A DNA stretch of 64,000 nucleotides, taken from assembly GCA_951406725.2 (NCBI GenBank), contig OX597833.1:58776001-58840000 (forward strand). The letters run 5' to 3'. Position numbers and translations under genes: made by a program. This document shows, one piece after another, positions 1-56,687 of the stretch (its first letter is position 1; every line of letters begins with the position of its first letter). This stretch comes from Octopus vulgaris (taxonomy: Eukaryota). Under the pieces are notes generated by a model. It saw nothing but the letters and a program-made list of their open reading frames with translations, was not told the origin of the DNA and did not search any database.

Positions 1-902
1 ACAAGTGTAGTTAATTCAAGATAGGAATATTTAAGGTAAGTGTTTCACAGTAGCAGTATATAGGAGTTCTCGTAGGGATAAGTTGAAGGGGCCACAACCA
101 GTTAGTTCTGAAGAAGATTTCGATAGAATAGGAGAGACAGACAGGAAAAAGAATAGAGAATGATTATTAGCTTTGAGAGGAGACTGTTAGGATTCAGGTA
201 TGATAATTAATAATTTCTGATTGGTTATTGATTGGTCATTAATTATAAGCAACTCATTGATATAATTGCCAATCAGGACCCACATATGAAAACACAGGTT
301 AGCATCCATATTCGGATATGATCGAGTAGACTGGTGGTATGTTACTGAAAAAAGTGACTTAAAAATCTGGACACCGTTCCCGAAGAGTAATGCTAGCCAT
401 TTGATCTTGGTCACTTTCAATGACCGTATAGCACCAGCCACTTTCTCTTTAATTATTAGCTTTGAGAGGAGACTGTTAGGATTCAGGTATGATAATTAAT
501 AATTTCTGATTGGTTATTGATTGGTCATTAATTATAAGCTACTCATTGATGTAATTGCCAATCAGGACCCACATATGAAAGCTCAGGTTAACATCCATAT
601 TCGGACATGTTGATGTATCTCATCCAGCCACTGAAAACGAGCAAATTCTTGACCGAAGCTTTATTTTTTTTCTCTCCATCTTCAGGAGAATTAATCATTT
701 ATGTCATAGTTGAGATAGTTCGCTAAAGAGATTAATCAAGCTAAACTGTTTTTTATTATACAATTATCTCCAGAGGAAATAATAAGCTTGCCAATATTTG
801 TTAATCTGCAGAACTTTCATTGATCTTGGCTGTGATGATCTTAAAATAGTAAGATGGAGATGTGGCGATCGAACGAGTTTTGATAAAAAGAAAAATCAAC
901 AC

Positions 903-12635: not shown

Positions 12636-13019
12636 TTGAGATATATGTGTTAGACTCGAAAACAGTGTTGAAATAAAGATTTTTTAAATATAAACAAAAG
12701 ACTAAAGTTGTCAAATAGATTTCATACCTATTTTTTAAACTACTAATAAAAGTATTACTTAAACTTACCGTGAAATGGTCCTTTTTCCATACCGAATTCT
12801 ACTTGGTGAAATTACTAATTACTTCTTAATTGATTAATTTTACCCTTTGTTATTATTTTTTAAACTATTTATTATGACTGCATCAAATATTTGTAATGCC
12901 CTTTTTTTTTTACTGAAATTCTTGTTTGATAAATGACTTATCTCTCTTTTTTCTTTTTCTTTTTCTTTCTTTTTCTCACCTTCTCTCTTCTCTCCGTCGT
13001 TGCCGTTCCGGACTTCCAG

Positions 13020-13287
13020 CATCGCAGGCCTCTATGTTTCTTTTATTCTGTTGATTGCACGCTTCCTTCGCATGGGAACCATCAACATGCATCCGTCAAT
13101 AATGTACCGTGAACTGCCGTTTGTTGACCGAATCCTCAAGCTGAGCCTCGACATTTACCTTGTGCGTGAGATGCATGAGTTCCGTCTGGAAGAAGATCTC
13201 TATGCCAAACTCATTTTCCTCTATCGATCACCAGAAACACTCATTAAGTGGACCCGACGTCGAATCGAAAGCAAAAAGGACAACTAG
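13020..13287 (+). CDS. Piezo: Piezo mechanosensitive channel, terminal coding exon copy A (inner helix + CTD)
   Basis: Long pyrimidine tract and ttccAG (13018-13019), then C|ATC GCA GGC... reads IAGLYVSFILLIARFLRMGTINMHPSIMYRELPFVDRILKLSLDIYLVREMHEFRLEEDLYAKLIFLYRSPETLIKWTRRRIESKKDN* (88 aa). GLYVS, ELP.VD.IL.L..DI.LVRE and LEE.L.AKLIFLYRSPET.I.WT are the Piezo C-terminal signature. The leading C fits completion of the Gly of GYG across a phase-2 intron. Confidence 0.95.
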
Positions 13288-13875: not shown

Positions 13876-13881
13876 AATAAA
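13876..13881 (+). terminator. candidate polyadenylation signal after Piezo exon A
   Basis: AATAAA about 590 nt downstream of the exon A stop. The hexamer is common in AT-rich DNA, so this is weak. Confidence 0.25.
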
Positions 13882-20580: not shown

Positions 20581-20833
20581 CATAATTGGCCTTTATGTGT
20601 CAATGGTGTTTGTAATCGGACGCTTTGCTCGTATGTTTGTCAGTGAAGTTTCCTTCCGTATCATGTTTATGGAGCTGCCCCGTGTTGACAACATCTTAAA
20701 ACTCTGCTTGGACATCTACCTTGTTCGCGAATGCTCTGATTTAGGTCTCGAAGAGGAACTGTTTGCTAAGCTTATATTTTTGTACCGCTCACCAGAAACC
20801 ATGATCCGATGGACTAAACCAAAATATGACTGA
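20581..20833 (+). CDS. Piezo: Piezo mechanosensitive channel, terminal coding exon copy B (inner helix + CTD)
   Basis: tctctgtttcAG (20579-20580), then C|ATA ATT GGC... reads IIGLYVSMVFVIGRFARMFVSEVSFRIMFMELPRVDNILKLCLDIYLVRECSDLGLEEELFAKLIFLYRSPETMIRWTKPKYD* (83 aa). Same signature and same phase-2 start as copy A. Confidence 0.95.
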
Positions 20834-20940
20834 AATATCCTCCCACAACATCCTGTCACTGCTCTCTCTATACTCAAGAAGTCTCTCTACACTATTTTGT
20901 TTTTACGAGATAAATGTATATACTCTGTATTTATTTCACG

Positions 20941-21566
20941 AAATATATGTATATAATATATACTTATACATACCCTCAAACTCCATACACTGAAAAAGTT
21001 ATGTAAAAATTCTGAAACTTGTAAGGTTGTATACTTTGATATTAAGAAGATGCAGGTTCAATTTCAGACCCATTCTCTTAACATTTTTTTTTTCTGTTTG
21101 TTTTAAACATACACACTCTCACTGTGTGTGTGTGTACACAAACAGACATACATACATACATGGATTGATTGATTGATTGATAGATAGATAAATAGATGAT
21201 TAATTCAATAATTGTTATATTTAAATTAGCTATTTCTGAACTAAAATATATGTATATAATATATACTTATACATACCCTCAAACTCCATACACTGAAAAA
21301 GTTATGTAAAAATTCTGAAAATTGTAAGGTTGTATACTTTGATATTAAGAAGATGCAGGTTCAATTTCAGACTAATTCTCTTAACATATTTTTTTTCTGT
21401 TTATTAGTGGTTTATATGTTTTAAACATACACACTCTCACTCTGTGTGTGTGTGTGTACACAAACAGACATACATACATACATAGATTGATTGATTGATT
21501 GATAGATAGATGAATAGATGATTAATTCAATAATTGTTATATTTAAATTAGCTATTTCTGAACTAA
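20941..21566 (+). repeat. tandem duplication of about 300 bp downstream of Piezo exon B
   Basis: 20941-21243 is repeated at 21244-21566 with a few substitutions and an indel of about 15 nt. Confidence 0.95.
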
Positions 21567-21727
21567 AAGGGAAGAATAAGAAGTGTGTTTCTACTTTGAT
21601 GTAGCTGTTGTGGTTTAAGTACTGGTCAATGTGGATCAAGTAGAACTATAAGCAAAGGTATTCCAGTTGCGTGACCATCCTCCCTCTGACTTAGTATATC
21701 CAAGATTACCCTAATTAAATATATTAA

Positions 21728-22112: not shown

Positions 22113-22118
22113 AATAAA
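22113..22118 (+). terminator. candidate polyadenylation signal after Piezo exon B
   Basis: AATAAA about 1.3 kb after the exon B stop, with another at 22758-22763. Cannot be ranked without RNA data. Confidence 0.2.
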
Positions 22119-46710: not shown

Positions 46711-47276
46711 TTGGGTTGTCCGGAAAGTTCGTGCCGATTTATAGTAGCTTAACTTTCGACTTATTTTAGAACATGGTTGAATCCATAAAGTAGGATTTGA
46801 CTACACCTCCATTTAGAGCACAGTTTAAGCTATCTTTTCGTGGAGGAAGGTTTATGTTCATATAACCTGTGTTAATTTTGTAAGCCTTCAAAATGGAAGG
46901 TAAGAAAGTTCATTTTCGACACTTGATGCTTTGGGAACCAGACAAAAATTGCTGTAGTTCGGCTGGGAAGTGTTACCCCACCCTCCATATCCACCAGATA
47001 TTGCTCCTTCGGATTTCCACTTATTCAGGTCTCTGCAGAATAGTCTTAATGGTAAAAATTTCAATTCCTTGGATGACGTAAAAAGATACCTCGATGAATT
47101 CTTTGCCATGAAAGCACCTCAATTCTGGGAAGAGGGTATTTTCAAGTTAAAGGAAAGATGGAAACGCATTGTGCAACAAAATGGTTCATATTTGGTTGAT
47201 TCAAAATGTAATGGCAAGAATTTATTGACCGTTTTCTTTCCTTTAAAAATCGGCACGGACTTTCCGGACAACCCAA
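46711..47276 (+). mobile_element. internally deleted mariner element
   Basis: TA|TTGGGTTGTCCGGAAAGTTCGTGCCGATTT ... AAATCGGCACGGACTTTCCGGACAACCCAA|TA. N-terminal MEGKKVHFRHLML is joined to C-terminal WEVLPHPPYPPDIAPSDFHLFRSLQ (YSPDLAP.D-type motif). Confidence 0.95.
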
Positions 47277-47875
47277 TAAAATGCTGCAGGAAAAAAACCC
47301 GTTCAACCCACGTCTACTTTTCCTTGCTAGCATAGGAATGCCTCGTAAAAACGACGTTAATAATGACGATAAAGATATGTACTATGCATAGAAATTTGAG
47401 AAATGATATTGATTTTAGAGACAAACTTCTTACTTATAAACATTTCCTAAGTGAAAATGGTAGAGATTTTCAGAAATATGTTCAATATAATATCATCTTC
47501 TATAAGTTGTAATCTAATTATATTTGCTGGATACACAGAGTAAGTTATTGTCGCTGTAGAATAATAATGATTGAATTTTTTATTCTGTTCACAAGCCATT
47601 TGATCAATGGTGCTTTGTTGGAAAGATCTTTGAATTTTGCAACAATTGGCAAAGACGTATCACCACCTGAATTAGAAAACAACTTATTGTATTTCATTTG
47701 CTGAGATTAACTCACAGAATGAAATGTTCTAGACTGTATCAACAAACATAAATTAAAGCATTGGGTTTAAAATGTACTCTAGTGTCTAACAATTTTAACC
47801 AGCACCCTTTTAAAGCAGGGCTATACTGGAAGTTGCCTACTGACTTCACAGATTTAGGAGACTACTTCTGATATA

Positions 47876-48044: not shown

Positions 48045-48520
48045 TACAGACACAACAAAGTAAGCAGTTATATCCACAGGACAATATGCCAATATTACAA
48101 CATCAAAACTGCCAACAGGTGGTATAAGAAAGTACCAAGTAAAATACAAGATAATGACCAGGCTACAATCATCTGAGATATGCCGGTTCAAGTCGAAAAA
48201 GAAATAAAAGCTAATCGCCCAGACATAATAGCTAAGGATTGGAGGAAAACACCTGCTTACTGATAGACATTGCAGTCCTTTTTGATCATAATATGGTAAA
48301 AAACGAAGTGGAGAAATTGTCCAAGCACAATGATCTCGAAATTGAAATATTCAAAATGTGGATCATGAAGGTTAAAACAATACCAATTGGAGCATTGGGG
48401 CTGATAAAAAAACCATATGAGCAAAAATGTAGAAGCAATACCTGGATTCTCAACACTACACACTGTCAAAAAGATAATCTTGCCAGGAGCAGCCCACATC
48501 CTACGCAAGATACTATCAAT
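48045..48520 (+). mobile_element. R4/Dong-like LINE restriction-like endonuclease 3' fragment
   Basis: IKANRPDIIAKDLEENTCLLIDIAV...KLSKHNDLEIEI..MW...TIPIGALG..AHILR. Confidence 0.8.
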
Positions 48521-48833
48521 CCAATAATACAGCCTAAACAAAACAACCCTCAAATACAAGACACACATTATACCCAGTGAAATAAATGAAATAAACGCCC
48601 ATCAGCAGGCAAGGAAACTAAAGCATTACACATTCAACCCACAGTATAAGCAGTAAAACAACAAAAAAAACCAGCATCACAGCTCAAGGAAAAACAGAAA
48701 AAAAACTAACACAATACAGCACCGGGAAGAGTTCGTACACTCTCAACCACAGAAAAGAAGACACGATGCTGTACACACCCCAGCAACACGGCAGTGTAGC
48801 AGGCGATGCAGTAGAAATTTCCCTCAATACTGA

Positions 48834-52935: not shown

Positions 52936-55265
52936 TCTCTCTGGTCTTTCTTAAGTTGTGTTGGATCTACAGCTTCGTTCACTTTTAAGGTTCCCAGCAT
53001 TTTCACTGATTCAATCATTTCTTCTTTACTCCCCTTGACATACCAAGCCAGGCTCTTTCATTACAGAACCTTCACAACACACTAATCCCCGTCCTCCTCC
53101 TTTCCTCTTTACTTACAATCTTGACACATCACTCTTGGAGTGTAGTTCCTTGTTCATTATCATTAATTTATATGTTCTCCGATCTATCTCTTGTAATTCA
53201 TGCTTCTTCCAAGATACTATTCCTGTCCCGTATCTCATCAAAGCAACCTCCCACGTGTTAATTGCTCTAATCTTATAGCAGCCATTTGGCTTCGACTGGA
53301 GCACAAGCCGAGTTCTCCTCAAATACTCTTTCTTGTAAATTTCTTCCATCTTGTGTTCATTCATCTTATCTCTTTGAATGATGCCCAGGTACACATATCC
53401 TTCTTCTCCGACTTCCTTTATAGTTTCACCACTCTGCAGCTTGATCCCGTGGCTTTTTACTGATTTCCTCCCTTTTGAGAATCATTACACCACATTTCTC
53501 GATCCCAAATTCCTTGCCAATATCTTTGCTAATCATCTGCACAGTTGCTATCAAACTCTCAGTTTCTTTCTCAGTCTTAGCGAATAGCTGTAGGTCATCC
53601 ATAGACCACAGGTTGTTTACCTTCACCTTGCCTAGCATGTATCCCACACGCATCTTTCTGAAAACGCTCGTTAGTGGCAGTATGCAGACAACAAATAGGA
53701 GAGGCCACAGGCTGTCCCCTTGAAAGATTCCTCTTTTGATATTTACCCCTTCCAGCTTATCTCCCCATGATGTGAGTTCAGTTCGCCCCATTGTTATTGA
53801 GTTTTGTATTAACTTCAATATGTTGTGGGAGACCTTAAGAAGTTTAAGGCAGTACAATAACCCACTAGTGTGGGACCATGTCATATGTGGAGGCACATGG
53901 CCTAGTGGTTAGAGCAGCGGACTCGCGGTCGAGGGATCGCGGGTTCGAATCTCAGACCGGGCGATGTGTGTGTTTATGAGCGAAACACCTGAGCTCCACG
54001 TGGCTCCGGCAGAAGTTAATGGCGATCTTCTGCTGACTCTTTCGCCACAACTTTCTCTCACTCTTTCCTCCTGCACTTTGCAGCTCACCTGCGACGGACC
54101 GGCGACCCATCCAGGCGTGGAACCTATACGCCAAGGAAACCGGGAAACCGGCCCTTATGAGCCAGACGTGGCTCGAGAAGGAACAAACCATATCATATGC
54201 TTTCCTGTAGTCCACCCAGGCCATCGCCAAATTTGTGTGTCTCTTCCTGCTGTCAGCCAGGATAGTCTTATTGATTAGTAATTGATCATTCGTTCCTCTG
54301 CTCTTACTTCTTCATCCTTTTTGTTCCACTGGTAGTAGGTCGTTCTCATCAAGGTACTTATAGGTGCTGTTCAATATGATAGCCGTCATCAGCTTCCACA
54401 TTAGTGGTAAATAAGCTATTGGTCGGAAATTTCCAACCGCATTCCCTTTGCTTGGGTCCTTCTGGTATACTACCATTCATCCTTTTGTCGTCGAGGCCGG
54501 TACTTGGATGTCACTACACGGCATTTCGCCCAGCTGTCTCGCAATTCTGTGCAGAGCTGTCAAGTTTTTAAAGCTAAAAGCCCTGAACCCCATCTAGGCC
54601 AGGCGCTTTCCAGTTAGGAATTTTCCTGCACTGATCTCTAATCAAATCCTCGGTTATTCTCAAATCTTCTTGCTGATAATCTCCACTCTCCTCTTCGAAT
54701 GTCTTTAACCACTCTGCTTCAGTTTCATGTTGTTTCTCCTGACAACCATATGTTTGACCAGAATCTTTTACTTTCTCCAGCATCCGGCACAGCCTTTTCA
54801 CCTTTTTCTCTCCCATCCAGTTCCTGATAGACTCGTTTCTGATTTTGTTCAAAAAGTCCGTTTCGTCTGTGCTGCTCAATTCTCTGTTCACATCTCTTTA
54901 CTTTATGCGCTTTAACTGTCAACCTCTATTTTGATTCCTGAATCACAACATTGATTCCCTTTCTCTTCATCCTATATACTTTCTCTCTAGCTCAACATAT
55001 TTCTCTCTCTGAACTTCATTTCTTTTTTTCCGTTCCAGAATATTATGTTTTCTGGTCTCGTTAATAGACTGCGTTATTCTCCTTTTCTACATTGGTTCAT
55101 TCAAGTTATGCTGACATTTACCTTTGGCTTTCAAACCTAACTTCCGGGCTATAAAGATCGAGGTTGCATTTATCAGATTGTTGGTGTCTGTGATGTTGTC
55201 AGTCCTGATATCACCAGTGAGACCATTTCTCTTCCTGACCCATTCATTGAGTTTCTTTCTGTCTA
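52936..55265 (-). mobile_element. decayed R4/Dong-like non-LTR retrotransposon (RT region)
   Basis: [79 protein letters not shown]. Frameshifted, and abuts (TAA)n. Confidence 0.9.
53888..54186 (+). mobile_element. tRNA-derived SINE inserted in the LINE RT, 13-bp TSD
   Basis: ACCATGTCATATG (53875-53887) and ACCATATCATATG (54187-54199). Splits the DYRKAYDMV|PH motif. Confidence 0.9.
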
Positions 55266-56009: not shown

Positions 56010-56212
56010 TATTATTATTATTATTAATATCCTCATCTTTCAATTTTGTTTCCATTTCTTGCCGAGTGTCTTCCTGACACTTAGGGCAGAGAAATATACT
56101 GTATACTTTGGTAGGCCCCGACGAGTTAGGTTTCTGTAAAAAGCCTACGAAAGTTTAAGCAGCATGGGATCGAATCAAACTGTTTTAAATAATAATAATA
56201 ATAATAATGATG

Positions 56213-56687
56213 ATGCAGAGTATCTCAACAGGCAGGAAAGAGCTGCACAATATATTCACTGGGTAATTTGCAAAAGCCTGGAGTTGCCCCATGATAAAAA
56301 CTGGTGGGAACACAAACCACCTCCAGTGCTTGAAAATGATCACATCTCACTCCTCTGGAACTTCACCATTCAAACTGACAGAACGATAGATGCAAATAGG
56401 TCAGACATCATATTGAAAGCCTTCAGACAAAAATCATGTCTCCTCATTGATATGACTGTCCCAATCGAAATAAACGTATCTGTCAAGACCTACAAAACCT
56501 GAGCAAATATAAAGATCTTGAAATAGAAATGATCAAAATGTGGAACCTGAAGACTAAAACAATACCTGTTGTCATAGGTGCCCTGGGAATGATAACAAAA
56601 GGGGCTGATTGCTACCTAGCTCAGATACCAGGAACCCCTAAAATGGCAGAAATTCAAAAGATAGTGCTCATGGGAACTGCTCATATC
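56213..56687 (+). mobile_element. R4/Dong-like endonuclease 3' fragment
   Basis: YIHWVICK..WWEHKPPPVLEND..LLWNFTIQTDRTIDANRSDI..LLIDMTVP...KYKDLEIE..PVVIGALG..IQKIVLMGTAHI, starting at (TAA)n. Confidence 0.9.

Follow-up and report, generated by a model that had tools for sequence, protein, structure and literature searches.

Two copies of the terminal coding exon in the octopus Piezo gene

The stretch of DNA analysed here (the window) comprises 64,000 nucleotides of the Octopus vulgaris genome and holds two copies of the terminal coding exon of Piezo, which we call A and B (Table 1). The first base of exon A closes a Gly codon that is split by a phase-2 intron, and its frame at 13021-13284 (+) gives the A peptide quoted by the first-pass annotation, followed by the TAG at 13285-13287; the frame of exon B at 20582-20830 (+) likewise gives the quoted B peptide, with its TGA at 20831-20833. 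Both translations score above the curated cut-off of 26.9 of the Pfam model PF12166 (A, E 1.4e-34 and 120.6 bits; B, E 1.5e-40 and 140.1 bits), and each aligns without gaps to residues 2466-2545 of the solved Piezo1/2 structures, with R2482, P2498 and the SPET constriction present. Positions are given throughout in the numbering of mouse Piezo1 from I2466 (PDB 5z10/6b3r chain); from this residue on the alignment is gap-free, and the mouse numbers that the first-pass annotation had assigned to A and B proved to be correct.

The upstream part of the gene is represented by a 1259-residue O. vulgaris protein, which maps to 27 ordered exons at G000:C20:58705997-58789284 and carries PF24874, PF23188 and PF15917, so that the blade, anchor and cap exons are found in the same gene; the shared anchor exon retains the equivalents of E2133 and E2172. 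Exon A starts 16.6 kb and exon B 24.2 kb beyond the penultimate exon, both behind AG acceptors in matching phase, and no other Piezo exon was found between them. A homologous pair of equal phase, each member with its own acceptor and stop and both downstream of one donor, is the anatomy of alternative last exons, and we regard it as nearly certain that one octopus Piezo gene ends in two tandemly duplicated alternative last exons, both intact and each encoding the inner helix and the CTD. The two share 49 of 80 residues, and their synonymous sites are near saturation. Gene conversion between them was considered and rejected, the longest shared run being 11 nt. A whole-genome search with exon B gave three candidates, two of which were matches, namely A and B, and an 839-residue Argonauta protein, in a stricter first look that a distant paralogue could escape, gave 13 matches, all in the Piezo locus and in order. 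The "two PIEZO genes" of PMC12919962 were not reproduced by this stricter first look, which found one octopus locus.

Table 1. Features at the 3' end of the octopus Piezo gene. Positions refer to the window unless a genomic location is given.
Feature	Position	Strand	Remarks
Terminal exon A, coding part	13020..13287	+	inner helix, IH-CTD linker, CTD, stop TAG
Terminal exon B, coding part	20581..20833	+	inner helix, linker, CTD, stop TGA; phase-2 acceptor
True penultimate (cap/outer) exon	G000:C20:58772176-58772383		outside the window; ends at 58772383 in phase 2
Acceptor region of A	12753..13019	+	265-nt AG-free zone, long pyrimidine tract
First AATAAA past the A stop	13876..13881	+	candidate poly(A) signal, motif only
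First AATAAA past the B stop	22113..22118	+	candidate poly(A) signal, motif only
Partial copy of penultimate exon	323..463	+	intronic, without both splice sites; tblastn 89% over 47 codons

The two acceptors are built differently. The AG-free zone is 265 nt long in front of A compared with 37 nt in front of B and 20-134 nt at the 25 upstream acceptors located by script, and branch-point-like words lie about 90 and 180-200 nt upstream of A. AG-free runs of at least 200 nt are not rare in the locus (28 of 9834 gaps) and lie mostly in simple repeats. From these features we infer a putative distant branch point for A, as is typical of regulated exons. Past exon B, ATTAAA at 21714 and 21903 precedes the first AATAAA, and a tandem duplication of about 300 nt (~20940-21230 and 21240-21560) lies in the presumed 3' UTR. 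The partial copy of the penultimate exon is flanked by a local duplication (~156-322 and 456-605) and is probably inert; contigs placed on the true penultimate exon match that exon with 0 differences. Elsewhere in the window four frames, at 46958-47332 (+), 53116-54897 (-), 48236-48577 (+) and 56140-56499 (+), were recognised by eye as transposon-like, and we take them to resemble a mariner-type transposase and fragments of non-LTR retroelements.

Both junctions were found in transcript-derived sequence. Exon A is 100% identical to the C-terminus of the transcript-derived O. vulgaris protein QHX41550.1, continuously over the junction, and both this protein and QHX41549.1 join the penultimate exon to A. 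The two proteins match assembled transcripts in table S2 of PMC12919962, where four O. vulgaris Piezo isoforms are given and isoforms X3 and X4 end in A. For B, one 343-nt contig of X12, a run guessed to be RNA, holds the whole penultimate exon and then B, with no branch to A, and reaches 30 letters into the B side, one fewer than the 31 that our criterion for bridging asks for; furthermore, the cephalopod protein P0043 is spliced to a B-type end. None of the runs listed for the locus is recorded as RNA, and the contigs show presence only: those of exon B occurred in one of four runs and in none of X4, X1 and X6, and even X12 left the greater part of exon B without coverage, perhaps through a filter effect. 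In all four runs the intron on either side of the penultimate exon lacked coverage, as expected of spliced RNA. The contigs that run past the donor in X8 (318 letters), X18 (318) and X4 (390) would end in repeats after A, and from these lengths we infer that they are joined to A. Taken side by side, the X12 contig entering B and the X8, X18 and X4 contigs fitting A hint at a sample-dependent choice of exon. An unspliced X12 contig (20400-20609) spans the B acceptor and is about as deep as the spliced one; pre-mRNA, intron retention or an extended 3' UTR of A could each account for it.

The dead partial copy of the penultimate exon in the same intron and the coverage of B in one of four runs would speak for one of the two exons being a pseudo-exon, the remnant of a second gene or an artefact of assembly. 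Against this stand two intact frames, acceptors in phase, junction evidence for each exon and the presence of orthologues of each in the same order in bivalves, and we assign such an origin a practically negligible probability.

Distribution and age of the pair

Both ends occur among the isoforms of seven other molluscs (C. gigas, M. edulis, H. asinina, Ruditapes, Mya, Ostrea and C. virginica). Ten isoform clusters were examined, five of which contain both ends in one species and four A only, with one split across scallop species. Among the isoforms listed, the ratio of A to B is 6:1 in H. asinina and Ruditapes, 7:1 in Mya, 9:1 in Ostrea and, in the 15 listed of 25 isoforms of C. virginica, 14:1; for Biomphalaria, Littorina and Bradybaena, A is the sole end among the isoforms listed and no B is listed. 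Exon A is neither rare nor specific to the octopus, being the end of most annotated molluscan isoforms among those listed. The two ends are already in automatic annotation (C. gigas XP_011438487/XP_011438488; H. asinina XP_067651571/XP_067651570; M. edulis CAG2248324/CAG2248322), where the molluscan Piezo records of RefSeq/GenBank are numbered isoforms without comment on the pore. In Solemya and Mya, gene models run A and B together in the octopus order, and in Nucella A and B are in consecutively numbered gene models.

In a 45-row, 82-column tree the 19 A exons, which come from three classes, form one clade (100/99) and the 11 B exons another (86/88), the stem branch being 0.42 for A and 0.19 for B. 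A duplication confined to the cephalopods was rejected: A and B form separate clades, and forcing the four cephalopod rows together was rejected by an AU test run after the tree had been seen (p-AU 0.0023). Clades that span classes, together with this rejection, indicate that the duplication predates the split of cephalopods, gastropods and bivalves. That split is Cambrian. In a second, deeper tree (23 rows added, 11 dropped, 80 columns), ten A-like sequences and the annelid Ridgeia group with A (98/86); A and B are sisters in the 45-row tree and not in this one.

The gene model P0003 of Didymodactylos carnosus, which we take to be a rotifer, fuses two complete tandem terminal modules, and these copies group together in the 45-row tree, which suggests an independent duplication. 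The stick-insect model P0009 (Timema genevievae), with P0420, has the inner-helix/linker exon alone in two tandem copies, followed by a single CTD, and the copy that comes first has L2476, T2485 and Y2494 as in exon A; this pair is possibly an independent, mutually exclusive pore exon. P0228 (Nucella), P0234 and P0236 have a divergent B-type end with a one-residue linker insertion, Y2495, a longer tail and branches of 0.73-0.94, and the B end of H. asinina has a linker insertion of the same length as P0228. The vertebrate Piezo1/2 sequences that were retrieved have one type of end per gene.

Residues that separate A from B

Residues were compared in a named set of 19 A exons, 11 B exons and 13 outgroups and in a wider set of 261 non-redundant variants from 472 matched segments, 32 of them A as defined by a motif and 229 non-A. 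The octopus residues listed by the first-pass annotation were read correctly: A and B have L/L and F/V at 2475/2476, N and E at 2487, Y and F at 2494, and R and M at 2495, and they have R2482, M2493, E2496 and SPET in common. Its list lacked F versus M at 2473, G/T versus F/V at 2484/2485 and S versus R at 2491. The differences do cluster in the inner helix and the linker as it had described, with 16 of 23 positions differing in 2473-2495 compared with 15 of 57 elsewhere (Fisher p = 7e-4), yet this is ordinary for the family: in nine rows of arthropod outgroups, 10-18 of the 23 positions and 14-21 of the 57 depart from mouse, so that the clustering alone does not make the A/B pair special. The distal CTD had been called almost invariant, which holds approximately: 2527-2538 is identical, and 6 of 24 positions differ in 2522-2545.

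The view that A is the more derived pore agrees with our data, since over 2473-2495 A matches mouse at 6 of 23 positions and B at 12 of 23, and the stem branch of A is the longer one. The complementary view of B as the canonical pore fails at the portal, where B has M2495 in the place of E2495 and has R2491. The acidic pair E2495/E2496 of mammalian pores is absent from both exons (A, R/E; B, M/E); the pair does not define the family, an acid (E or D) being present at 2495 in 162 of 229 non-A variants. Residues E/N2487 and F/Y2494 had been put forward as determinants of the A/B difference. Both turned out to be common variants, an outcome that had been named beforehand as speaking against them, and neither sorts the two exons. 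At 2487, G occurs in 156 of 229 non-A variants and in the majority of A and B exons from other molluscs; A exons have G or N there and B exons mostly G, and E2487 belongs to the cephalopod B exons and to Piezo1 of vertebrates, being found in 27 of the 229 non-A variants. Position 2494 is F in 13 and Y in 6 of the A exons, F in 9 and Y in 2 of the B exons.

Other sites sort the two exons in the named set, although their counts are not independent, all A exons descending from one event. F2473 is present in 19/19 A and 1/11 B, I2474 in 17/19 and 0/11, T2485 in 17/19 and 0/11, and L2476 in 17/19 and 1/11, with V2476 in 10/11 B; position 2484 is S, G or A in all 19 A exons and F in 10 of the 11 B exons. 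L2481, M2516 and Y2526 also sort A from B, M2516 being present in 19/19 A. The motif that defines A in the wider set uses 2473-2485, which makes the wider counts circular there and not at the charge positions; L2476 is also found in 53 of 229 non-A variants. Identity over 2473-2495 is 63% between A exons, 59% between B exons and 32% between A and B.

What these sites might do can be gauged from mouse Piezo1. L2469, I2473, V2476 and F2480 face the pore (PMC6349400), and from source file 5 of that paper, with means recomputed here, the inactivation tau is 2.64 ms (n 7) for V2476L versus 10.36 ms (n 6), that is, inactivation about four times faster, and 10.13 ms (n 9) for L2475F versus 10.77 ms (n 7). 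The mutation F2484L raises the open probability and leaves conductance unchanged (PMC13157073), and transfer of the fly C-terminal region in a chimera speeds up inactivation and confers the conductance and the insensitivity to ruthenium red of the fly channel (PMC4445471). Drosophila Piezo itself (PDB 9w7x chain) has the gate of A (F2473/L2475/L2476) and, unlike A, acids at 2495/2496 and a basic 2491; a second terminal exon was not seen for it in these data. From the published mouse mutants one would expect A and B to differ in kinetics. The two pores could instead be similar, the pair being kept for its different 3' UTRs and tails (mRNA localisation, level, trafficking, partners) while drift in the pore was tolerated. 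This would fit with the tails of A and B differing and their UTRs necessarily doing so, with the differing stretch being the most variable part of the exon in the family, with 2487 and 2494 not sorting, and with the only moderate effects of MF-site changes in mouse (PMC6349400). It fits poorly with A states that are near-fixed over three classes (F2473, M2516 and a small residue at 2484 in 19/19; I2474, L2476 and T2485 in 17/19), with the high identity within and low identity between the exons, and with the fourfold effect in mouse of V2476L, the one substitution that has been directly tested. We consider similar pores unlikely, if still to be taken seriously.

The second group of sites concerns charge. 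In mouse, E2487, S2491 and E2495/6 line the lower fenestrations (lateral portals), their neutralisation lowers cation selectivity and a nine-lysine mutant that includes 2491, 2495 and 2496 is anion-selective (PMC7815867), and E2495/E2496 are tied to Ca2+ selectivity, conductance and ruthenium-red block (PMC7796548, PMC8042031). The portal charge summed over 2487, 2491, 2495 and 2496 is 0 in 18/19 A and negative in 10/11 B and in 12/13 outgroups, with -3 in mouse and -1 in octopus B; in the wider set 28 of the 32 motif-defined A variants are neutral, and of the 229 others 197 are negative and 26 neutral. The exceptions are A of M. edulis at -1, a tie with its B, and B of Nucella at +1, and over the longer stretch 2483-2497 the A/B contrast is weaker, A being negative in 12/32. 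R or K at 2495 occurs in 15/19 A, 0/11 B and 5/229 non-A variants, one of these a named tick Piezo, and R2491 in 7/11 B. Neutrality of A is reached by varied combinations (TRE, SRE, GKE, KLE, RLE, KNE, SLH), and in those A exons that have lost the basic 2495 the balance is restored by R/K2491, as in oysters and one mytilid, or by H2496, as in abalone. The varied residue sets fit selection on the electrostatics of the ion path and weigh against the idea that the two exons are distinguished by gating (inactivation, threshold, open probability, or the binding of an auxiliary subunit or the lateral plug) and not by selectivity, with charge as structural compensation. For gating alone one can argue that the most fixed differences are at hydrophobic gate and helix-end positions and not at charges, that 6/19 A exons have L, N or K in place of R2495, and that F2484L in mouse shifts open probability and not conductance (PMC13157073). 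On balance we find a difference confined to gating quite improbable.

The Piezo-like P0394 of the tick Ornithodoros turicata, which lies outside the A clade, also has R2495, with acidic residues at 2487 and 2491 balancing it. In bivalve A exons (for example P0124, P0022 and P0265) SPET is replaced by S-A/S-E-T-R and M2493 by T, S or A, so that both cytoplasmic constrictions are altered, unlike in octopus A.

Predicted consequences of the exon choice

We propose that the shared upstream exon is spliced to either A or B, which would give one force sensor with two different pores. L2476 of A would tighten the hydrophobic inactivation gate, whereas F2475/V2476 of B would act like wild-type Piezo1. 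The neutral portal of A (N2487, S2491, R2495, E2496), as against the net -1 of B (E, R, M, E), would lower Ca2+ preference, conductance and ruthenium-red block, and the loss of F2484/F2485 in A would alter the open probability. Exon choice might perhaps depend on tissue or state through the distant-branch-point acceptor of A, and mixed A/B trimers might conceivably form where both are expressed. We think it quite likely that A and B differ in some biophysical property, and we lean towards the specific prediction that splicing yields two channels, A inactivating faster and being less selective for cations and Ca2+ than B. These gate and portal effects are carried over from mouse mutants, which are single, to octopus exons that have 16 linked differences, and the portal model concerns a charge difference of one unit per subunit, with B also lacking E2495. 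The literature yielded no electrophysiological recordings from a molluscan Piezo isoform. AlphaFold2 monomers of A-type (Argonauta) and B-type (cephalopod) proteins have pLDDT <50 over the inner helix in both.

A further-reaching version would make A a neutral-portal pore that lets chloride through to an appreciable extent and shuts within a few milliseconds; molluscs, and perhaps lophotrochozoans at large, would use it in some tissues and the cation-selective B pore in others and mix the two into four trimer types, duplication of the inner-helix exon recurring in rotifers and stick insects as a general means of retuning; we judge this whole picture improbable. At the other extreme, A might be a non-conducting or dominant-negative subunit that tunes trimers containing B, as the loss of the aromatic pair 2484/2485 and a basic 2495 that is rare elsewhere (R or K in 5/229 non-A) could be taken to mean. 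However, A is the majority end among the isoforms listed and the sole end listed for Biomphalaria, Littorina and Bradybaena, it retains R2482, an acid of the E2496 class, P2498 and the core of the CTD, and fly Piezo conducts with the same gate residues as A; a silent A therefore seems very improbable.

Splicing is known to tune the kinetics and permeation of Piezo channels. Mouse Piezo1.1 is a variant of the lateral plug and C. elegans pezo-1 has isoforms, and Szczot and colleagues (2017) reportedly described Piezo2 splicing that is specific to the cell type. To our knowledge, the known variants add or drop loop or N-terminal segments, and none is a duplicated inner-helix/CTD exon. The closest precedent is the pair of alternative selectivity-filter exons of NALCN (Senatore et al. 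2013, PMC3557258), where, as here, alternative exons of one invertebrate channel gene exchange pore charges; the NALCN exons are conserved over bilaterian invertebrates including a snail and their use is tissue-biased. Unlike the NALCN exons, which are internal, belong to a four-domain channel and exchange a single filter residue (PMC3557258), the Piezo pair belongs to a trimeric mechanosensitive channel and swaps its entire terminal module, from the gate helix and portal through the CTD to the stop and UTR. Substitutions derived from tandem exon duplication (PMC8373072, PMC9741552) are likewise old either/or exons that fine-tune a region of a protein; those surveys, unlike the molluscan Piezo case, concern human genes. 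A published description of the mollusc Piezo exon pair was not found among the entries shown in literature listings whose coverage leaves subscription journals outside, and alternative Piezo ends are not mentioned in the accessible portions of PMC12919962, PMC12036646 and PMC7992859. New here are the sorting of A and B at the level of residues, including which of the sites named by the first-pass annotation are neutral, the agreement between the gate of A and a mouse mutant with a measured fourfold effect, and the finding that portal neutrality is conserved.

The pair is a natural and long-conserved set of two Piezo pores on an identical force-sensing body, in which the roles of the gate, the helix end and the portal charge in inactivation and in Ca2+/anion selectivity can be tested without engineered mutants. 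It also suggests a route by which a division into fast and slow channels could be had with one Piezo gene, where vertebrates use Piezo1 and Piezo2. In practical terms, Piezo probes or clones from octopus or bivalves do not distinguish A from B if all their sequence is upstream of the last exon. The differences between A and B are genomic; in principle, A-to-I editing might recode the N2487 codon of A to D, S or G and the E2496 codon of either exon to G.
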